Source of the DNA: an uncultured virus (IMG/VR IMGVR_UViG_3300028394_000068)
Taxonomy: Duplodnaviria > Heunggongvirae > Uroviricota > Caudoviricetes
DNA: 64,000 bases
Virus record (IMG/VR): IMGVR_UViG_3300028394_000068
Strand: one strand, 5' to 3'
Both the position numbers and the translations under genes were made by a program. Under the pieces are notes generated by a model. That model had not been told where the DNA came from. It ran no database searches and saw only the letters and a list, made by a program, of their open reading frames with translations. Positions 19,501-56,855 of this stretch are shown here, in pieces; position 1 is the first letter of the stretch, and every line of letters starts with the position of its first letter.

Positions 19501-19595
19501 TAAATTTCATAATTTTCCTGTTTATTTTCTAAAAAAGTAAGTGTTTTTACCTTGATAGTCAAAACTTTTTTGTAGTTGCGGAATATATGTATTAT

Positions 19596-19790
19596 ATGAT
19601 AATAGTAAAATTAGACAAAAACATTTCTATTGAGAAGGCATTGAAGCTTTACAAAAGTAAAGTTATCAAGACTAGACAAAGTTCTGAGCTTGTAAAAAGA
19701 AAAGAATTTAAAAAGAAATCTGTCGTTAAACGTGCTGAAATTTCTAAGGCAAAATATGTCCAAAAGAAATTTAAGTCAAATGATGATTAA
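19596..19790 (+). CDS. rpsU: Phage-encoded 30S ribosomal protein bS21
   Basis: IEKALKLYKSK...RKEFKKKSVVKRAEISKAKYVQ matches the Flavobacterial bS21 pattern; antisense within the head operon. Confidence 0.88.
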   Translation: MIIVKLDKNISIEKALKLYKSKVIKTRQSSELVKRKEFKKKSVVKRAEISKAKYVQKKFKSNDD

Positions 19791-35294: not shown

Positions 35295-37340
35295 ATGATA
35301 GAATCTATGGATGGTGGAAGTAATGGTGGTAATAAAGCAGTTAAGACTGACTCGTCAACTCCCGTATTAGACAATTTTAGTAGAGATTTAATAAAACTTG
35401 CCGAAGAGGGTAAACTTGACCCGGTAATTGGTAGAGAAAGAGAAATCACACGAATCGCCCAAATCCTTTCACGTAGAAAGAAAAATAACCCAATAATCAT
35501 CGGAGAACCTGGTTGTGGTAAAACCGCAATCGTGGAAGGTCTTGCCATTATGATTTATAATGGGGAATGTCCAAGAAACTTAATGGACAAACGTATCGTA
35601 TCCTTAGATATGACATCAATTGTTGCCGGAACCAAATACCGTGGACAATTTGAAGAAAGAATGAAAGTTATTATTGAAGAACTTCAGAACGCACCGAACA
35701 TCATCGTATTCATTGACGAAATCCACACAATCGTTGGAGCAGGAAACTCATCAGGTTCAATGGACGCATCAAACATCTTTAAACCGGCACTTGCCCGTGG
35801 GGAGATTCAATGTGTTGGTGCAACAACATTAGATGAATACCGAAAAAACTTTGAGAAAGACGGAGCATTAGAAAGACGTTTTCAAAAAGTTGTAGTGGAT
35901 GCGGCAACCAAAGCTGAAACCCTAATCATCCTTCAAAATGTCAAAAACAAATATGAGGATTATCATAAGGTAACTTATACGGATGAAGTATTATCAGTAT
36001 GTGTTGATTTAGCTGACCGTTACATCACCGATAGAGAATTTCCGGACAAAGCGTTTGATATTATTGATGAGGTTGGAGCAAGAAGTCAGGTGGATATCAA
36101 AATGCCCGATACAATTGAAAAATTAAAACAACAAGCGTCAGACATCAAACAAGAAAAAGTCAATGTTGTAAAACAACAACGATATGAGGAGGCAGCAAAT
36201 CTCCGTGACAAAGAAAAACGTATCTTAAACAAACTTGAGACTGAAAAGAAAAAGTTTGAAGAAGAACTTCTTACACACAAGAAAGAAATTACACTTGATT
36301 TAGTTTATGAGGTTGTTTCCAATATGACAAAAATCCCGGTAACAAAATTAAATGCCGATGAAACTAAAACTCTATCTGAGATGGAATCAAACCTATCTGA
36401 TAAAGTAATTGGACAAGCGGAAGCAGTTTCAAAGATTGTTAAATCAATCCGTAGAAACAGAATTGGTATCAAAGACCCGAACAAACCAATTGGTTCATTC
36501 ATCTTCCTTGGTTCAACAGGTGTGGGTAAAACATACTTGGCAAAACAATTAGCAAAACAAATGTTTGGTAGTGAAGATAATATGATTCGTGTGGATATGT
36601 CGGAATACCAAGAAAAACACTCCATTTCAAGATTGATTGGAGCACCTCCGGGATACGTTGGATACGATGAAGGTGGTCAATTAACCGAACAAGTGAAAAA
36701 CAAACCTTATTCTGTAATTCTATTTGATGAGATTGAGAAAGCCAATAAAGACATTTTTGGAACTCTACTTCAAGTATTAGACGATGGTCACCTTACCGAT
36801 GGTATGGGGAGAAAGATTAACTTCAAAAATTGTGTTATCATTATGACATCAAACGTGGGGGTTAAAAAGTTACAGGATTTTGGTTCAGGTGTTGGGTTTA
36901 AAACTGGTAATAGTACTTACGCGGAAGAAGAATACAAACGTGAGACTCTTAAAAAAGAACTTAAAAAATTCTTTACACCGGAATTTTTAAACAGAATTGA
37001 TGAGGTAGTAATCTTTAACTCTTTAGTTAAAGAAGACGTTAAAAAAATTGTGACTTTGGAATTGGATAAATTATCCAAAAGATTGGTTGGGTTGAAATAT
37101 AACATCACATTTGATGAGTCTATTTTAGAACTAATCTCTGAAGTTGGGTTTGATGAGACCTACGGGGCTAGACCAATCAAAAGAGCTATCCAAGATAAGA
37201 TTGAGGATTTTGTGTCAGAAGAAATTATCAAAGGAAATATGGTGGAGGGTGTTCCATACACCCTTGTATCCATAGAGAAAGAAGTGATTGTTAAACCGGA
37301 AGTTGTTAAAAAGACAAGAAAGAAAAAAGAGGACCAATAG
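35295..37340 (+). CDS. clpC: ClpC-type AAA+ unfoldase lacking the N-terminal domain
   Basis: GEPGCGKT and GSTGVGKT Walker A motifs; UVR coiled coil ([11 protein letters not shown]); GVGF ClpP-docking loop. Confidence 0.9.
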
Positions 37341-39994: not shown

Positions 39995-40025
39995 TTTGGA
40001 TTTATCCAAAAATGTATTATCTTTG
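39995..40025 (+). promoter_or_regulatory. Bacteroidota sigma70-type promoter for tmRNA
   Basis: TTTG-N19-TATCTTTG. Confidence 0.7.
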
Positions 40026-40039
40026 TGGTATCAAAATAT

Positions 40040-40436
40040 GGGAGTGACACGGAATTGACTATTCGTAATAGTTATTCGGGGCACGTAGTGAGATGTTCTC
40101 TATCACTTAAATCTATGGGTACAACAATTTAGACGGAAACGTTTTAAACAAAATGGCTCTAGTAGGTCTTGTACGTCAAGACGAGCTTGTGAACGTAGCG
40201 TAAGCACACTCACATTGGGGTCGGTGGACATATAACCTAGCAACAGAAGTCCCTACAAAGGTGTGGTACCTATCCGAAAAGGTACAAGTGGAGGATTAGT
40301 TCTCAGTAAACCGAACCACTCTAAAAATAAGGGAATTGTGAAATTTTGGATTGTTAGCTTAAACAATATCCTAAACGTGTAGTCCTTAATAGGTAATACA
40401 AGTAACACCGGAGTTCGAGTCTCCGCACTTCCACCA
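40040..40436 (+). ncRNA. ssrA: tmRNA (one-piece)
   Basis: 5' GGGAGTG pairs with 3' CACTTCC-ACCA with G3:U70; GGAATTGAC D-like loop; CGGAG-TTCGAGT-CTCCG T-arm; tag frame 40135-40203; smpB nearby. Confidence 0.93.
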
Positions 40437-40913: not shown

Positions 40914-41351
40914 CTATTTCAAGTCTCTTTTCATATCTCTTTCAATATCCCGAGATTTAATACTATCTCGTTTATCGTGGAGTTTTTTCCCTTTGGCAAG
41001 AGCAATCTCCATTTTAATCAATCCGGTATCGTTTATGAAGACACGATAAGGAATAATGGTTGTCCCGTTGATTAACTCACGTTCCAACTTATTAAGTTCT
41101 TTTTTCTTGGCTAATAGTTTTCTATCCTTAACGGTCTCGTGGAATGACCCATAACCATAATCAGAGATGTTCATCCCCTTTATAAACAACTCACCTTCGT
41201 TGAAATAACAATACCCTTCAGATATGGAGACCTTTCCCTGACGGATGGACTTCACCTCTGAACCAACTAGTTTGATTCCCACAATTAGGGTTTCTAAAAA
41301 TGAATACTCAAACTTGGCTTTCTTATTGACTATGTTAATTGATTTTTTCAT
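40914..41351 (-). CDS. smpB: SsrA-binding protein SmpB
   Basis: NKKAKFEY, GIKLVGSEVKSIR, RKLL, AKGKKLHDKR. Confidence 0.95.
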   Translation of the reverse strand: MKKSINIVNKKAKFEYSFLETLIVGIKLVGSEVKSIRQGKVSISEGYCYFNEGELFIKGMNISDYGYGSFHETVKDRKLLAKKKELNKLERELINGTTIIPYRVFINDTGLIKMEIALAKGKKLHDKRDSIKSRDIERDMKRDLK

Positions 41352-41355
41352 ACGA

Positions 41356-41386
41356 CAAAGATAATATAAAAATTGGTATAAACAAA
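41356..41386 (-). promoter_or_regulatory. Bacteroidota sigma70-type promoter for smpB
   Basis: TTTG-N19-TATCTTTG on minus strand. Confidence 0.65.
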
Positions 41387-42526: not shown

Positions 42527-42615
42527 ACCAATAAATATATGAAAAAAATAAATAATTTTTTTCTAATAATTATGACTTTTTATACTTTTTGAGATATTTA
42601 TAATAAAGAGATATT

Positions 42616-42768
42616 ATGAACCCAAGAAAAAAAGAAGAAGATAAAAAAGTAAAGTTTGGAATCTGTGTTGACCCGGTTATTTACAAAAAAATGGAAGATG
42701 AGATGATTAACAAATCTCGTCTGATTGAAACACTATTAAAAGAACATTATGGAAAAAAAAGTTTGTAG
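42616..42768 (+). CDS. Small ribbon-helix-helix-like DNA-binding protein (absent from the ORF track)
   Basis: MNPRKKEEDKKVKFGICVDPVIYKKMEDEMINKSRLIETLLKEHYGKKSL; beta-alpha-alpha pattern; overlaps the HNH start. Confidence 0.55.
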   Translation: MNPRKKEEDKKVKFGICVDPVIYKKMEDEMINKSRLIETLLKEHYGKKSL

Positions 42769-43378
42769 TAAATGTAAAGAAGAAAAAGAACTTTGTGAGT
42801 TTCAAAAACGGAAAGATTCTAATGATGGTCTGCGAAGTGAATGTAAAAGTTGTATTAAGTTTTACCACAAAGTTTGGAGAACTCAAAATCCAAATAAATA
42901 TCCTGTTTATAACAAACAATTTAAGATAAATAATCCTGAAATACATAAAACAATAATTAAAAAATATAAAGAAAATAACAAAGAAAAAATTGAAAATAAC
43001 AATCGTAAGTGGAGACAGAACAATAAGGAATATATTAATAATTATATGAAAAATAAACGAAAAAATGATTCACAATATCATTTAATAACACTAGTAAGAT
43101 GTCGTCTGAATGAATTTTTACGAATTAGAAAAATAACCAAAAGAAATAACACTATAAATATTGTGGGTTGTTCACCGGAATTTCTTAAGATTCACATTGA
43201 GAATCAATTTACTGAAGGTATGTCTTGGGAATTATTAGGTCAACATATTCATATTGACCATAAAATTCCTTTATCTTCGGCAAAAACTGATGAAGAAATT
43301 TATCAGTTATGTCATTACACAAATTTACAACCACTATGGGCATTTGATAATTTAAGTAAAGGTGATAAAATATTATAA
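42749..43378 (+). CDS. HNH endonuclease-like protein with N-terminal Zn finger
   Basis: CSKC...CKSC; HIDHKIP...CHYTNLQPLWAFDNLSKG. Confidence 0.8.
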   Translation: MEKKVCSKCKEEKELCEFQKRKDSNDGLRSECKSCIKFYHKVWRTQNPNKYPVYNKQFKINNPEIHKTIIKKYKENNKEKIENNNRKWRQNNKEYINNYMKNKRKNDSQYHLITLVRCRLNEFLRIRKITKRNNTINIVGCSPEFLKIHIENQFTEGMSWELLGQHIHIDHKIPLSSAKTDEEIYQLCHYTNLQPLWAFDNLSKGDKIL

Positions 43379-43380
43379 AC

Positions 43381-43414
43381 AAAAAAAGGTGTCACATTAC
43401 TGTAACACCTTTTT
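43381..43414 (-). terminator. Intrinsic terminator of the large ncRNA (also usable by the HNH gene)
   Basis: Minus strand GGTGTTACA-GTAA-TGTGACACC-T7. Confidence 0.8.
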
Positions 43415-44221
43415 GGCTTAATACGATGAGAATACTCGTCTTATTGAGAATCTTTAGAAGTTTTATTGTTTGACTTCTTTTCCACACCCTTTTGGGATGT
43501 AATCCTCATTGCCGATTAGTTAGACTAATCACTCCTTACGATATCATTTACTCTCTCATTATTCAACTCTCTTCAAGCTTGCGACCTGACTCCGGATTCG
43601 ACTCCGTAGAGGTTTTTGGTAAGAATACACATTAACTTGCGGTCTTTGTGTGCTATGGACATCCCATAACTAAGTAGGCAACTTGTCAATGACATCGGGT
43701 AGACATTTTTGCTATGTTTCTTTTAGTTTTTCACCATATTGAAAATAGTAATTGTGTTGTGGATGTGTTCAAGAAGTAGTCTACCATAAGCTTCGTCTCC
43801 TTTTGAGAGACAAAATACTAAACTTCTCGATGAGATATCCCTATCTCCACTTTTCAAGACATCTTCATACCATCACCTTGGTGGGTGATTGATAAGGATG
43901 ATGACAGCACCACCTGTTACTCATCTTACCTTTCGATTTTAAGATACCTATTAAGTTGGAACCCGCAATTATAAAGTCGGATAACTTTACTTCTCACATA
44001 ATCCCTATGGGTTATTTTTTTTGGTGTTCCCACCTCAAACAGACAATCCACATTGCCCATTCAGTTTTCCATTTCCCTACGAAGTTATCCTCGGTACTAC
44101 AGGCTCACTGATATCCCACTTGTGTACTCGAGCTCCCTTTCAGAAGCCGCAGAACCAATAACACTGATGGTTCCACTTTAATCCTCATTTCTGAGTTTAT
44201 TTGATGACTATACACAGCCAA
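43413..44221 (-). ncRNA. Large structured ncRNA (~810 nt), GOLLD-like
   Basis: No ORF of 60 aa or more; visibly GC-richer than flanks; termini pair (TTGGCT/AGCCAA); many GNRA hairpins; own promoter and terminator; size and tRNA-adjacent phage context fit GOLLD. Family identity not confirmed. Confidence 0.7.
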
Positions 44222-44304
44222 TTATCGTTTTTTACTCCACCGAAGTGGGTAAAGGATAATCTAAAATTTCTAAGAACGTCTTGAGGTTTTCCTCATTTGT
44301 TTTA

Positions 44305-44335
44305 CAAAGGTAAGTGATTTTTTTCTAAAGTCAAA
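44305..44335 (-). promoter_or_regulatory. Bacteroidota sigma70-type promoter for the large ncRNA
   Basis: TTTG-N19-TACCTTTG on minus strand. Confidence 0.7.
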
Positions 44336-44357
44336 CACTTTTGTAATTTTTTTTTAA

Positions 44358-44475
44358 TCTGTGATAAGACCTTAAGATTTACTCATTCGTAGGTCACCCA
44401 TTCTATTCTACCTAAAACTCGCACTCCCGTCGGGATAGTCTGCTGTAATAGGGCTATCTGCTATCTTATCACAGA
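44358..44475 (-). ncRNA. Unknown 118-nt structured RNA
   Basis: Perfect 12-bp terminal helix TCTGTGATAAGA/TCTTATCACAGA; internal helices; lies between tRNA-like genes and the large RNA. Confidence 0.5.
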
Positions 44476-44486
44476 ATAAACTATTG

Positions 44487-44576
44487 TGGTATCAGATGGG
44501 TTCGAACCACCGGCACAGAGTCTTTCGTTACTCCTGCTCTACCAAAGGAGATAAATCTCCACTGAGCTATAATACC
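44487..44576 (-). tRNA. Atypical tRNA-like RNA (hairpin inserted in D-loop, 8-nt anticodon loop)
   Basis: GGTATTA/TGATACC acceptor, GCTC/GAGC D-stem, GGTGG-TTCGAAC-CCATC T-arm; loop AACGAAAG. Confidence 0.75.
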
Positions 44577-44585
44577 ATATAAGTT

Positions 44586-44660
44586 AGTGGACGTATGCTC
44601 TACCATCTGAGCTACGGAGTTAAGACCGGAGGGATTTGAATCCTCGACACAACGTCCACC
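44586..44660 (-). ncRNA. Circularly permuted tRNA-like RNA
   Basis: Order is anticodon-stem 3' strand, variable loop, T-arm, looped acceptor stub, D-arm, anticodon-stem 5' strand. Confidence 0.7.
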
Positions 44661-44697
44661 TATATTTTCAATAATTTTAAGAACTTTATTTCTTCTA

Positions 44698-44729
44698 CAA
44701 AGATAATACTTTTATTTTAATCTGTCAAA
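44698..44729 (-). promoter_or_regulatory. Bacteroidota sigma70-type promoter for the tRNA-like cluster
   Basis: TTTG-N20-TATCTTTG on minus strand. Confidence 0.65.
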
Positions 44730-44888
44730 TTATTTTAAAAATAATTCTATTAATTTTATTAAACCAAAACTAAAACACATTCCGGATACAAAATAACTGA
44801 ATGCAGGATTTTTACCATTTTCTTTTTGTGTTTTTGCGGAGAATAGGTTTAATCCCATCAATCCAAATTGTACTAATACTATTGTCAT
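44730..44888 (-). CDS. Small two-TM membrane protein (52 aa, absent from the ORF track)
   Basis: MTIVLVQFGLMGLNLF...FSYFVSGMCFSFGLIKLIELFLK; ATGA-coupled to the upstream ORF. Confidence 0.5.
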   Translation of the reverse strand: MTIVLVQFGLMGLNLFSAKTQKENGKNPAFSYFVSGMCFSFGLIKLIELFLK

Positions 44889-45028
44889 AATTTTTTTTGT
44901 TTTTCTTGTAATTCAGTTAATGCCTCTTTAAGTTCTTTACCCCACGCTTCTTTCCATTGTTCAAAAGTAAATTTTGATTCCGGATGAATCTTCATATAAT
45001 TCTTGTATTGTGTTTCTAATGTTGCCAT
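44885..45028 (-). CDS. Small hypothetical protein (47 aa, absent from the ORF track)
   Basis: MATLETQYKNYMKIHPESKFTFEQWKEAWGKELKEALTELQEKQKKL. Confidence 0.5.
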   Translation of the reverse strand: MATLETQYKNYMKIHPESKFTFEQWKEAWGKELKEALTELQEKQKKL

Positions 45029-45042
45029 ATAATTTAATTTAG

Positions 45043-45144
45043 TAGTCAGGACAGGATTCGAACCTGTTCCGTCTTTGCCATAAAGAGTCGGCCTTACCGT
45101 TACTCAACCTTGGGGAGGTGATACCAACCAATGGTCTCCTGACT
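45043..45144 (-). tRNA. Atypical tRNA-like RNA with expanded multi-hairpin middle
   Basis: AGTCAGG/CCTGACT acceptor; ACAGG-TTCGAAT-CCTGT T-arm; non-canonical anticodon/variable region. Confidence 0.65.
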
Positions 45145-45299
45145 ATGTTTCGCTAATGTTAAAAACTGACTCAATCTTCCTAAAAAACACTAACTTCCTT
45201 CTTACTCTATTATAGGCTCGGCCGTCCTGTTTTAAATATAGTTTTACCTGAAACTTCGGCCGGCTGTTGATTGACCACTCCCACCTACTCAAGTAGTTT

Positions 45300-45554
45300 T
45301 TACATACTCATCATCCAACCCATTCGGTTCTGTGCTTGATACTCAGTATAAGTACATTTTCTCATTGTCTTATAATCCGGTCTCAACTTAACGTGTGTTG
45401 GATATTTCTTCTCGTGCTCTTTGTGTTCTCTCACCACCTTAGCGTAAGCCTCTCTTTTACTTGGAGCCCACACGTCGTTAAATCCACCACCAATCCAATT
45501 AAACAAATAAAGGTATTCACCGTTAACACTTCTATACAATTTTTCTTTAGCCAT
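45300..45554 (-). CDS. Hypothetical protein
   Basis: 84 aa; promoter TTTG-N19-TATCTTTG at 45576-45606. Confidence 0.6.
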   Translation of the reverse strand: MAKEKLYRSVNGEYLYLFNWIGGGFNDVWAPSKREAYAKVVREHKEHEKKYPTHVKLRPDYKTMRKCTYTEYQAQNRMGWMMSM

Positions 45555-45661
45555 AGTTCATCCGTTTTGTGAGTACAAAGATAAGCCTTAAATTCAAACT
45601 GCCAAACTTTTTTTAAAAATTTTTTTATTTTTTTTTATTACTGAAGTGAAGTAAAACAAAT

Positions 45662-45684
45662 AACCCCTCTTCGGAGGGGTTTTG
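45662..45684. terminator. Terminator-like hairpin
   Basis: AACCCCTC-TTCG-GAGGGGTT. Confidence 0.55.
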
Positions 45685-46263
45685 TTATTTTAATAATTTT
45701 TTAATCCTATTTAATTCTTCTTGTAAAACTTTATTTTCCATAACCGGTTTCCCAAGTACCTTATCGACTGCGGTGAATGGGAATAACATAGTTTTTAAAA
45801 ATGTGTCGTGAAATGAACCATCTGTAGGTAACCCTATTTGAGAAGTATCTAAAGAATCTTTTTTCTTTTCTTTTTGTTTCTTTTCTTTTGGTTTTTCAAT
45901 ATTTGAAGTTCCACTATCAATACCTTCAAAAAACGGTTTTAGTCTAACTTTTTGATTACGGTTATCTAAAATTGAATATCTTAAATCTTTATCACCGGCA
46001 ATACCCAAACTACTCCCTTTTCTTAAATTATCACCCCTGTTAACAGTTATTCTATTAACTTCACATATATTAGAGTGGTATACATCGTTTCCAACAATAT
46101 GTTTAATTTTTACATTACCTCCACAATCATTTACATCCACACTTTGTACAACACCATCATATGGTGAACGTACTAAATTACCTTGATGGGTATTTATACT
46201 AATTTCTTTGGATGATAAATCAGATGGTCTACCACCTGAAACTGGTAATTCAAACTTATCCAT
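45685..46263 (-). CDS. M23-peptidase-like protein (metal ligands degenerate)
   Basis: VRSPYDGVV...GGNVKIKH...VNRGDNLRKG..LG fold signature; HxxxD and HxH absent. Confidence 0.6.
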   Translation of the reverse strand: MDKFELPVSGGRPSDLSSKEISINTHQGNLVRSPYDGVVQSVDVNDCGGNVKIKHIVGNDVYHSNICEVNRITVNRGDNLRKGSSLGIAGDKDLRYSILDNRNQKVRLKPFFEGIDSGTSNIEKPKEKKQKEKKKDSLDTSQIGLPTDGSFHDTFLKTMLFPFTAVDKVLGKPVMENKVLQEELNRIKKLLK

Positions 46264-55083: not shown

Positions 55084-55755
55084 ATGATAACAAAAAGACC
55101 ATATAATACTAGAGGTAACCCTAAAACTGATTGGATTAATTCATACAGGACATTTAGTTTTCCTGGATATTTTGACCCTAAATATAGAAATTTTGGTGAC
55201 CTACAAACAATTAATGACGATAGAGTCCAACCAAATGGTCACGTACCAATACACGAACATAAGAATATGGAAATATTTGGTTATGTGGTAGAAGGTATTT
55301 GTAGGCACACTGATAGTCATGGAAAGGTATTAGATATACCAGCAGGTGCAGTACAAAGAATGAGTACAGGACGAGGAATAAAACACACAGAAGGTAATTC
55401 TTCGGATACACCAAATCGTTATTTACAACTATGGATTAAACCAAACGTGTTTGATACCGAACCAATACACGAATGGCATCAATTTACAAGAGAAAATAAA
55501 TTAAATAAATTTTGTGATATAACTGAAAAATTACCAATTAAACAAGACGCTAAATTATTATCAGGAATATTTACTGAAGATTTTGATTTTGAATTAAAAA
55601 CTAATCGTAAATACTATTTATATGTTGTTTCAGGTGATGCAAATATAAATAATCATTCATTAATTGAGGGAGATGGTTTAAGTTTTATAGATGAAAATAA
55701 AATTGAGATAACAACAAAAAAAGAATCTGAAATAATACTATTTGATTTACAATAA
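55084..55755 (+). CDS. Pirin-family protein (YhhW-like)
   Basis: HEHKNMEI, HTDS.G, VQRMSTGRGIKHTE, LQLWI. Confidence 0.9.
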   Translation: MITKRPYNTRGNPKTDWINSYRTFSFPGYFDPKYRNFGDLQTINDDRVQPNGHVPIHEHKNMEIFGYVVEGICRHTDSHGKVLDIPAGAVQRMSTGRGIKHTEGNSSDTPNRYLQLWIKPNVFDTEPIHEWHQFTRENKLNKFCDITEKLPIKQDAKLLSGIFTEDFDFELKTNRKYYLYVVSGDANINNHSLIEGDGLSFIDENKIEITTKKESEIILFDLQ

Positions 55756-55778
55756 ATAAAAATAAAAAAACAAAAAAA

Positions 55779-56855
55779 ATGATACAAGGAATTAGAATAA
55801 CAAGTACAAATTTATCAGGACTAACGGCAAACGTTACTTTTTATCCCACAACTGGTGGGTCAGAAAATTTAGGATCTGAAGTAATACCATTTAATAATAT
55901 TTCGGTTTATCCTTACGGAACATACGAATTAGACGTTCCATTATATGATAGAATATATGAAATAATTGTACCAGCACCATTAACAGGTCAGAGTGCATAT
56001 ACTCAAACAGTAAGATCGGTTACCGTTGACGGAGGATACCAACCATTCTCAGGAGCGGTATTATCTGAAGTGTGGGGAACATATACAACAGAGTATGTCA
56101 CAAATGAAGGAATACCATCAACTGATATTGTTTTAGCTGAAGGTATTTGTTCTGATGATGTGGATGCGGCATATTTACCTGGAAATATCGGTGGATGGCC
56201 AACTAGCATTAACTCATTTTTAGGACCATTTCAATCAGGTGGATTGGCGGGTTATCCGTTTGTTGGTAGTGTTGGATTTGGAGCATTTGCAAGTCACGTG
56301 GCAACAACTCTTGGTGGAACCTTGTTTGTAACGAGTATGCCACACATTGGTGTTACTGAAGATGGTCGTTCAGGTAGAATGCTGAGAAGGGGTAAAGCAG
56401 ATAGTATAACAGATAATACCTGTGGTGCGGTTGCGGGAGCAATTGACCAAGTTGTTAATCAACTAAGTTCGGCTCCAGATCAAAATAACGCACCTTTTAA
56501 TAATGAAAATTATTCTTTTTGGAAATTGACTGATATTTTATGGCCGTATAAAAATGTATTATCAGGGTTTACAGGTACTTCTGAAGAGATTTATAATAAA
56601 CAAATGATATTTGCTACAGAAACAATTAGGGATTCTGCTTATGATTATATTATTGCAAATTTACCTGCAGCAACAAGTGCTCAAACCACAAATGATGTAT
56701 ATTTTTTAAGTGGTATTTTTATTAATAGTGATGTTAGTTCCGGTACAACACAATTTGAATCATATGTTGTTGTTGATAAAGTTATGAAATATGTGTTTGA
56801 TGACCAGTGGTATGATATAACGGTTGATTATATGGCTGGATTACCTATTGACTAA
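55779..56855 (+). CDS. LCIB-family (beta-type) carbonic anhydrase domain fused to a virion-type N-terminal module
   Basis: ICSDD, GGLAGYPFVGSVGFGAFASH, PHIGV..DG..G...RRG, TCGA. Confidence 0.75.
   Translation: MIQGIRITSTNLSGLTANVTFYPTTGGSENLGSEVIPFNNISVYPYGTYELDVPLYDRIYEIIVPAPLTGQSAYTQTVRSVTVDGGYQPFSGAVLSEVWGTYTTEYVTNEGIPSTDIVLAEGICSDDVDAAYLPGNIGGWPTSINSFLGPFQSGGLAGYPFVGSVGFGAFASHVATTLGGTLFVTSMPHIGVTEDGRSGRMLRRGKADSITDNTCGAVAGAIDQVVNQLSSAPDQNNAPFNNENYSFWKLTDILWPYKNVLSGFTGTSEEIYNKQMIFATETIRDSAYDYIIANLPAATSAQTTNDVYFLSGIFINSDVSSGTTQFESYVVVDKVMKYVFDDQWYDITVDYMAGLPID

Follow-up and report, generated by a model that had tools for sequence, protein, structure and literature searches.

The stretch of DNA analysed here, called the window throughout, is 64,000 nucleotides long and comes from an uncultured virus (IMG/VR record IMGVR_UViG_3300028394_000068). 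Between positions 43,381 and 45,144 it carries a group of structured RNA genes in which a GOLLD RNA stands next to several tRNA-like RNAs. All positions given below are those of the whole window; the elements of the region all lie on the minus strand and are read from 45143 down to 43383. The GOLLD RNA accumulates as a discrete RNA of about 811 nt, and two of the tRNA-like RNAs, named E1 and E2, have kept their folds through compensatory changes in related phages, so that they are selected mimics of tRNA and not decayed genes. An earlier note on this DNA, made from the letters alone, had named these elements, and each was found on the minus strand within a few bases of the place given. Folding and the comparison of homologues also agreed with its description of the small RNAs as tRNA-derived molecules that keep T-loop and D-arm features and have no canonical anticodon arm.

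E0, E1 and E2 are read as non-decoding mimics because the acceptor/T-arm helix, the T loop and the D-loop with G18-G19 are kept and the decoding anticodon arm is lost. The kept parts are the basis of the L shape of tRNA, and they are what tRNA-handling enzymes read. In this reading, the tRNA-type genes that adjoin GOLLD in a widespread group of jumbo phages from lakes are selected non-decoding mimics and not ordinary tRNAs. Apart from GOLLD, two kinds of phage tRNA mimic are added: one resembling a Y RNA but without Ro60, and one of Phe type with a maintained hairpin in the D-loop. GOLLD was already known, whereas the orphan YrlA-like mimic and the Phe-type D-loop-hairpin mimic were not found in the literature searched; these open texts (subscription-only papers and supplements were outside the search) held no description of E1- or E2-type mimics. 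The accessible part of a 2020 review of non-canonical tRNAs contains neither the word "phage" nor a D-loop hairpin insert.

Folds of the tRNA-like RNAs

E2 (44486-44576) is a look-alike of tRNA-Phe. The Rfam tRNA model (RF00005) matched it at 44487-44576 with 38 bits against a cut-off of 29. Its D-loop is not of ordinary length, with 19 positions where the Rfam consensus has 2, and in the window a 5-bp hairpin is inserted there. A pattern scan of IMG/VR with two D-arm words placed 12-22 bases apart returned at least 112 loci, from which 34 distinct E2-type sequences were kept after filtering, among the matches listed; all counts out of 34 below apply to this set. The filter required GGT near the 5' end, and the type represented by locus L132, which it excluded, was restored later. 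Twenty-one sequences were of the window type (GGTATT...), 11 of a second type (GGTTG...) and 2 of others. The D-loop hairpin was present in 34 of 34, with 4-7 bp and, by eye, about a dozen different stem sequences. A Phe-type tRNA with such a hairpin is now known from dozens of uncultured phages. The same D-arm pattern gave at least 120 matches in bacterial and archaeal genomes; 14 had a T loop after it and none was E2-type among the matches listed, all 14 adjoining ordinary tRNAs as partial repeats or as joins that contain N.

The MAFFT alignment of the two E2 clades was faulty at the acceptor stem and the D-loop hairpin, and RNAalifold recovered from that alignment only the D, anticodon and T stems. 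E2 was therefore parsed sequence by sequence, and pairs were counted on the window clade alone (22 sequences). In this set, 95.6% of the 611 cells of the cloverleaf plus hairpin were paired, compared with 90.4% in shuffles, and ten of the 28 pairs had changed on both sides, compared with 4.6 in shuffles; none of 500 shuffles reached the observed pairing, with the caveat that relatedness alone can lift a set of sequences above its shuffles even where there is no structure. The helix of the D-loop hairpin was 99.2% paired. When the partners were slid by 1-3 columns, only 43-54% of the cells paired. The structure of E2 is considered real because these slid controls were low and because the hairpin stems of the second clade are unrelated in sequence.

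The anticodon-like arm of the window E2 combines a stem of 5 bp with a loop of 8 nt, AACGAAAG, in which a C takes the place of U33, and so departs from the canonical arm with its 5-bp stem, 7-nt loop and U33. A possible sixth stem pair was unpaired in 14 of the 22 window-clade sequences, and position 33 was a C in 17 of the 22 rows (by eye). All 21 GGTATT-type sequences had, by eye, a loop of 8 nt, or else of 6 nt where one more pair extends the stem. Over the whole family the arm length ranged from 15 to 18 nt and the loop from 6 to 8 nt; loops of 7 nt occurred in seven sequences of the 34, none of them GGTATT-type. The GAA triplet, read from the alignment, was the same in 34 of 34, and so were GGTA+GAGC and the 3' ACCAC that includes A73. 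GAA and A73 are the main identity marks for the phenylalanyl-tRNA synthetase (PheRS), and E2 carries both.

Compared with an ordinary tRNA-Phe(GAA), E2 has the same 7-bp acceptor stem, A73, 4-bp D stem, G18-G19, TTCGA T loop, 5-nt variable loop and GAA in the anticodon-like loop. It differs by the D-loop hairpin, by the 8-nt loop without U33 in the window and by the variable arm length. Since GAA and A73 are kept in a molecule whose arm is non-canonical, E2 appears to be a derivative of tRNA-Phe kept for a purpose other than ordinary decoding.

It is improbable in our view that E2 is a working, if unusual, tRNA-Phe, whether as a decoder that tolerates the hairpin, as a frameshift promoter acting through its 8-nt loop or as a donor of charged Phe off the ribosome. 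The invariant GAA and A73 would agree with such a role, as would the seven 7-nt loops, the tRNA calls made by both Rfam and ARAGORN and the finding, by eye, that exact removal of the hairpin leaves a D-loop of normal length. The arm itself argues otherwise, because the unpaired sixth position leaves a 5-bp stem with an 8-nt loop, because C33 prevails and because the length of the arm varies. The amino acid named by ARAGORN was also inconsistent: the window E2 was called tRNA-Thr(GGT), and its homologues Pro, Thr or undetermined. These labels are artefacts of the insert. Finally, the relatives already have a tRNA-Phe(GAA) with a normal anticodon loop. The complete relatives each have 20 or more tRNAs in an array located 11-17 kb from GOLLD, and in both of them the array holds a tRNA-Phe(GAA) with a 7-nt loop (G003:87132-87204 and G002:293177-293249, in L343 and L352). 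Its T loop is AGCGTAA, and because of this odd T loop ARAGORN misses it; two more G002 tRNAs have similar odd T loops, and all three were missed by ARAGORN and reached 42-50 bits with Rfam. Both complete relatives encode a tRNA-Phe, and the idea of E2 as a substitute for a missing one was rejected for this reason.

In the second E2 clade (L115, L117, L129, L143, L156 and L180; about 1380-1850, oriented) the mimic was flanked by two small RNAs. Upstream stands a hairpin RNA, about 45 nt long, with GATGAAAGA in its sequence; the downstream RNA is longer and begins with GGACAG.GGAAT. Neither had an Rfam match, and most of the flanking RNAs had their own promoter.

E1 (44586-44660) is a circularly permuted tRNA-like RNA with the topology of YrlA. 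It consists of a T arm, a capped acceptor hairpin and a D arm, in this order, closed by a 9-bp stem of the 5' and 3' ends, and is open at the anticodon stem. In a permissive Rfam scan, the segment 44568-44672 aligned to YrlA (RF02553) end to end (model 1-114) with 34.7 bits against a cut-off of 69 (E = 3.6e-5 in a 2.9-kb search). Thirteen distinct E1 homologues were each folded individually, and all 13 gave the same four-way junction. In the consensus fold, four of the nine pairs of the outer stem had changed on both sides, and none was broken in any sequence. The capped hairpin varied yet stayed paired (CGG/CCG, CGGA/TCCG, CTTG/CAAG).

According to the accessible parts of Chen et al. (2014, PMC4201824), YrlA likely contacts Ro60 through the motif GNCGAAN0-1G near its 5' end, and a Ro60/TROVE gene lies within about 4 kb on the same strand. 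The same parts warn that tandem tRNAs can imitate YrlA. A tandem-tRNA artefact was ruled out for E1, because a covarying stem closes the module. The motif was absent from the window E1 with its leader and from 10 of the 13 homologues; it was present in the other 3, overlapping the promoter in 2 of them. E1 has the arm order and closing stem of YrlA, and it lacks three of the four defining features of that family: the score, the GNCGAAN0-1G motif and a Ro60 neighbour in the phage DNA scanned. In addition, its acceptor-like stem has only 3-5 bp. To judge from this comparison, E1 would work like a YrlA-type tRNA mimic; it should not be filed in the YrlA family.

A test for decay had been set beforehand by the earlier note. 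The homologues of E1 and E2 passed it, their folds being kept by compensatory changes, as is not expected of plain pseudogenes. It is thus extremely unlikely that the elements are decaying tRNA pseudogenes or the recombination debris of a tRNA region, and the covariation counts already contradict this explanation. Two observations would suit it, namely that the cassette between E2 and promoter 2 differs among related loci and that the cores of the E0 family are highly variable. They stand against the 95.6% of paired cells and 10 compensated pairs of E2, the 4 compensated and no broken pairs of E1, and the D-loop inserts that stay hairpins in every sequence despite their different letters.

E0 (45045-45143, 99 nt) has a 7-bp acceptor stem, a canonical TTCGAAT T arm and a short D arm, and extra hairpins replace the anticodon and variable arms. 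With the Rfam tRNA model it reached 17.4 bits, below the cut-off of 29 (E = 4.2), and ARAGORN made no call. Fourteen distinct members of the E0 family, 70-142 nt long, share the acceptor/T-arm frame and a 3' trailer TAC and differ in their cores; two of them have inserts of about 30 nt inside the D-loop. Several related loci hold two or three E0-type genes. An inner stem reads CGGT/GCCG in the window and CGAT/GTCG in L137, and the single-sequence fold of E0 has z = -1.5. The frame is clearly conserved, and the evidence for the inner fold is thin. Three oversized tRNA-like genes of 94-121 nt with two T-arm-like hairpins were seen inside the ordinary tRNA array of a relative (G003:77144-77237, 77560-77680 and 78920-79026; L345, L349), and one of these has an E0-type acceptor stem.

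E3 (44358-44475) is a closed RNA of 118 nt with a 13-bp closing stem. It folds at -33.5 kcal/mol (z = -2.3), and 3 of 200 shuffles were as good. Rfam gave no match for it at E <= 10. Of 13 related loci, 6 contain E3, two of these copies being enlarged by some 150 nt of internal insert, and covariation is uninformative because the six copies are too alike.

The GOLLD RNA and its neighbours

GOLLD is one of the largest non-coding RNAs of bacteria and phages. In the window it occupies 43423-44245, with the 3' domain at 43423-43830 and the 5' domain extending up to 44245. The Rfam model RF02032, which covers the conserved 3' domain only, matched 43423-43830 over its full length (model 1-416 of 416) with 287.9 bits against a cut-off of 150 (E = 3.2e-81). 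The large multi-hairpin RNA that had been described as GOLLD-like is thus a true GOLLD by its Rfam score. The scan of the whole window at the gathering threshold gave three matches: GOLLD, a tmRNA and the E2 tRNA. A scan of IMG/VR for a GOLLD word found 102 stretches, 80 of them with 2.5-kb flanks, and by BLAST the segment from about 44230 to 43420 aligned at 67-89% identity in the flanked GOLLD loci. The 5' domain is common to this lake-phage group, because the alignment covers the entire 810 nt or so across these loci.

The RNA shares with the family its 3' domain, its size (about 811 nt, many members exceeding 800 nt), the less conserved 5' domain and its phage context near tRNA genes, here with T4-like genes and with tRNA-type genes directly upstream. 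The RNA itself is nothing unusual. It differs in its company, which consists of non-decoding mimics upstream instead of ordinary tRNAs or the Met-tRNA of env-38, and in having its own promoter and terminator in this clade.

Transcription had been named by the earlier note as something to look for, and it was observed for GOLLD. Six lake metatranscriptome runs contain 35-45% of the sampled words of the region, and four of these, from four different studies, were mapped onto 42600-45800 as contigs, not reads. In run X15 an RNA contig of 830 nt covered 43435-44245 with one mismatch, and in X16 a 742-nt contig covered 43504-44245. The same span was tiled by shorter contigs in X17 and X18, which extended as far as 43425 in X18. 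In the flanks (42707-43348 and 44312-45800) the depth was only 0 to 1 in every bin, so the signal is not carry-over of DNA. GOLLD is thereby abundant in these RNA libraries relative to the neighbouring messenger RNAs (mRNAs). A short piece of GOLLD, the 34 nt at 44005-44038, showed an RNA-contig depth of up to 777, the contigs having dissimilar sequence on both sides of it; it is probably shared with other GOLLD variants of the same lakes.

No contig listed for the four runs extended beyond 44245. Directly beyond this position, the X15 and X17 contigs continued into adapter-like letters, which we take to be an Illumina adapter, and the RNA fragments therefore end at 44245. This 5' end is only a hint, because the data are contigs and not reads. 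The -7 box of promoter 2 (44305-44335) ends at 44305, so that the start would be near 44298, about 50 nt before the 5' end of the contigs. Either a leader of about 50 nt (44246-44298) is removed or reverse transcription stops at 44245. The leader contains a small hairpin whose stem covaries among loci, as TGAGG/CCTCA, TTAGG/CCTAA and TAAGG/CCTTA (by eye, uncounted).

In the accessible parts of two papers (PMC12286853; reviewed in PMC12990946), GOLLD is described as building RNA-only homo-oligomeric cages, and its function as still unresolved despite these cages. Cage formation would apply here by membership of the GOLLD family, the RNA of the window being described from its sequence and the RNA contigs. 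The same parts report that GOLLD occurs near tRNA islands, that tRNAs lie inside the GOLLD linker and that env-38 lies beside a Met-tRNA, and they raise the encapsulation of phage tRNAs as a hypothesis.

The neighbourhood of GOLLD was compared in 57 deduplicated loci, being the window and the 56 others that remained once duplicates and loci with under 1.5 kb of upstream sequence had been removed. E2 lay 135-644 nt upstream of GOLLD in 12 of the 57, and these are the 12 of 12 deduplicated loci of the window clade; without deduplication, GOLLD was downstream in 17 of 18 window-type E2 loci with enough flank. In 11 loci (L006, L007, L009, L018, L019, L034, L036, L038, L039, L052 and L075) a tRNA(CAT) began 7-16 nt beyond the estimated 3' end of GOLLD, and in those phages RNase P cleavage could form the 3' end of GOLLD. 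In 9 other cases out of 57 a tRNA(CAT) was located 214-529 nt upstream. Altogether E2 or a tRNA(CAT) adjoined GOLLD in 32 of the 57 loci, and ARAGORN found no tRNA in 21. The upstream tRNA(CAT) of L003 had, by eye, the marks of an initiator, with a C1-A72 mismatch and a GGG/CCC anticodon stem.

The second and other E2 types gave a different picture. Among the matches listed, 24 loci were of these types, and BLAST placed GOLLD within 1.5 kb in none of them; Rfam likewise gave no GOLLD match in the 12 loci of those types that were tested, nor in L103 and L110, both positive controls being matched. The sister-clade E2 genomes nevertheless carry one GOLLD each, about 55-70 kb away (4 of 5 records, 3 of 3 complete). 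In L103 the gene after E1 and E2 encodes a protein, and there is no GOLLD within 1.5 kb. Pairing with GOLLD was examined locus by locus in 12 loci for the anticodon-like loop of E2, to which the test was limited. The best duplexes ranged from -3.9 to -8.3 kcal/mol; the sites differed, shuffled loops were as good at frequencies of 0.07-0.95, and a kissing contact of this loop thus found no support.

E2 and GOLLD, as far as these genomes indicate, co-occur in genomes and are adjacent in one clade; they would be neighbours and not obligate parts of each other. The proposal that the region is one RNA-only system was consequently not borne out, given the 55-70 kb that separate E2 from GOLLD in the sister clade, L103 without a nearby GOLLD and the lack of loop complementarity. 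It is unlikely that the mimics are clients of GOLLD, either as cargo of the cage or as partners in its assembly or targeting, the locus then being a single RNA-only machine. The constant place of E2 in the window clade, the 32 loci with an adjoining E2 or tRNA(CAT), including the 11 with a tRNA just past GOLLD, the GOLLD carried by the sister-clade genomes and the published encapsulation hypothesis are all in its favour. It is weakened by the distances in the sister clade, by the protein gene that follows E1 and E2 in L103, by the 21 GOLLD loci without an ARAGORN tRNA and by duplexes no better than those of shuffled loops.

A larger version of this idea makes GOLLD and the mimics one RNA-only device for counter-defence or translation control, in which the cage would display or store non-decoding tRNA look-alikes, namely the Phe-type mimic with its elbow hairpin, the orphan mimic of Y-RNA kind and frames of the E0 type, and these would capture host tRNA-binding factors such as anticodon nucleases, tRNA-sensing immune proteins, Ro60 or PheRS. 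We regard it as distinctly unlikely. If it were true, the clients of GOLLD could be read from the genes beside it, and the function of GOLLD would become directly testable. The mimics are in any case concrete candidate partners for GOLLD and may help to explain the purpose of GOLLD loci.

A possible role as decoys

We propose that the mimics are released by tRNA-processing enzymes and act as sponges or decoys for proteins that recognise the shape of tRNA or the identity of tRNA-Phe, a model to which we give about an even chance. Promoter 1 (44698-44729) would yield a precursor with E1 and E2, E0 being located further upstream behind a conserved small protein gene, and promoter 2 would drive GOLLD. 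RNase P and RNase Z would cut the mimics out, and the freed RNAs would bind tRNA-binding proteins of the host or of the phage. E2 would offer the phenylalanine marks GAA and A73, and E1 would present the design of a Ro60-binding Y RNA without the Ro60 handle. The mimics would serve in a conflict over host translation, tRNA cleavage and RNA damage, alongside the tmRNA/SmpB and RNA-repair genes encoded nearby.

Several points weigh against this model. No Ro60/TROVE match was obtained in Pfam scans of 70 distinct open reading frames (ORFs) of the window, nor in five phage records of relatives (two of them 100% complete), with a control search that matched in Deinococcus and Bacteroides thetaiotaomicron. 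The conservation of GAA could reflect a residual role in decoding or charging. E3 and the core of E0 carry little or no informative covariation, and the regular placement of E2 near GOLLD in the window clade would also fit a joint function. No RNA contigs were found over E0-E3 in the four lake runs, in libraries that are not expected to recover small RNAs; the flanking protein genes were likewise uncovered, save for a depth of 1.0 in one bin of one run.

The tRNA-like elements might also be mere punctuation, cutting signals for RNase P and RNase Z that free neighbouring RNAs from long precursors. The tRNA(CAT) just after GOLLD in 11 of the 57 loci could define the 3' end of GOLLD in this way, and in the window E1, E2 and E3 are behind one promoter, no minus-strand terminator having been found between them in the scan. 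Such cutting needs the acceptor/T-arm helix only, yet compensatory changes have also preserved the outer stem of E1, the hairpin in the D-loop, the stem of the anticodon-like arm and the GAA loop. GOLLD in the window, moreover, has its own promoter and terminator. This explanation seems to us very improbable.

Two known systems resemble the decoy model in part. Some phage tRNAs escape or neutralise tRNA-cleaving defences, one example being a phage tRNA that counters PARIS (PMC11455837). This one reportedly does so as a working tRNA that replaces the cleaved host tRNAs. It is likewise a phage-encoded RNA of tRNA type with an altered anticodon arm, in a genome with tRNA-repair enzymes. It differs in that it substitutes for a cleaved tRNA, whereas the mimics described here would act by binding and not by substitution, because they cannot decode by the usual rules. 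The tRNA cluster of phage T4 yields stable RNAs that are not tRNAs, the species 1 and 2 RNAs. Like the mimics, they are small RNAs of a T4-type phage that share a transcript with tRNA-type genes and that tRNA-processing enzymes would be expected to free; the likeness is by description only and is offered as a lead. If the mimics titrate tRNA-targeting defences, they would represent a new principle of RNA-based counter-defence. If they are mere stable by-products, they would still be a useful annotation of a known RNA family.

Layout of the island and its phage

Both promoters are of the Bacteroidota type. Promoter 1, located ahead of E1 and E2 and probably of E3, was found by pattern match and is conserved in the alignment of related loci. 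Promoter 2 is also a pattern match, and a regular expression found it in the corresponding position in 11 of 13 related loci. The motif TTTG-N18-20-TAnnTTTG, which we take to be the Bacteroidota promoter consensus, matched nine times in the window compared with 2.74 expected, and none of 100 shuffles reached nine. Six of the nine matches were just upstream of a correctly stranded gene, those of promoters 1 and 2, tmRNA, SmpB, a ClpB-like gene and orf84. The island ends in an intrinsic terminator (43383-43414), which has a 14-bp stem and a 4-nt loop followed by a T run, and it is located 5 bases from the end of a convergent ORF (42749-43378, plus strand). The motif statistics and this stem with its T run confirmed the two host-type promoters and single terminator that had been noted. 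The description of the region as one operon did not hold, since GOLLD has its own promoter.

The description of the region as almost entirely non-coding was correct for its RNA content and not for the whole, as two small conserved ORFs lie between E0 and promoter 1. The first, orf47 (44885-45028, minus strand), stays open in one other locus (L008, 52% identity by tblastn). The second, orf52 (44730-44888, minus strand), encodes a small hydrophobic protein and stays open at 47-75% amino-acid identity in five other loci (tblastn). Neither had a Pfam match. By this conservation both are real genes. The left border of the island is formed by orf84 (45300-45554, minus strand), which is conserved in the comparison of related loci and also precedes the E2-type gene in L115, of the second clade, and in L103 (read by eye).

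The content between E2 and promoter 2 varied among the 13 related loci. Some have E3 there. Other promoter-driven small RNAs occupied this spot in L033, L064, L067 and L074, and another permuted tRNA-like RNA, whose sequence shows no relation to that of E1, came directly after E2 in L001, L048, L061 and L070, with the outer stem GTGTAGTGTA / TACACACAC. The region, on this comparison of loci, is a shuffled island of independent RNA genes and not a fixed operon.

The earlier note had also placed the island between tmRNA/SmpB and RNA-repair genes, and Rfam and Pfam located both within 7 kb. The tmRNA gene (40040-40436, plus strand) scored 68 bits against a cut-off of 47 and has a Bacteroidota-type promoter match 15 nt upstream (39995-40436 with the promoter). 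The SmpB gene (40914-41386, minus strand; Pfam E = 5e-47) is divergent to it and has its own promoter match. On the other side, the minus-strand segment 47622-51296 encodes an Rnl1-type RNA ligase, a P-loop kinase (AAA_33), a metallophosphatase, a pyrimidine-dimer-glycosylase-like protein and cREC_REC, a cyclic-phosphate processing receiver protein.

The window also encodes a T4-type major capsid protein Gp23, the portal Gp20, TerL and PolB (Pfam). A bS21 gene (19587-19790, plus strand) scored 29.3 bits with Pfam against a cut-off of 27 and stands on the opposite strand within the T4-like structural block. The accessible main text of PMC9723584 describes bS21 phages of Bacteroidetes with genomes of 293-331 kb and a like placement of bS21 in the structural block, and contains no mention of GOLLD, tmRNA or "noncoding". 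Relatives of the locus are found on IMG/VR records of 317-322 kb rated 100% complete. From these genes, the locus would be the structured-RNA island of a bS21-encoding T4-like jumbo phage whose host is probably a member of the Bacteroidota. A search for relatives through the neighbouring M23-peptidase gene found none. With blastn against named phage records, only two unannotated huge-phage records were matched, at 37-41% query cover and 67-70% identity.

Further genes of the window (35295-37340 and 55084-56855, both plus strand) encode a ClpB-like double AAA+ protein, a pirin and an LCIB-type beta-carbonic-anhydrase-like protein. In L103, at about 1640-1860 (oriented), E1 and E2 are followed by an ORF that by eye resembles a GIY-YIG homing endonuclease, in the place where GOLLD is absent. 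This ORF hints at how the cassettes of the island may be exchanged.

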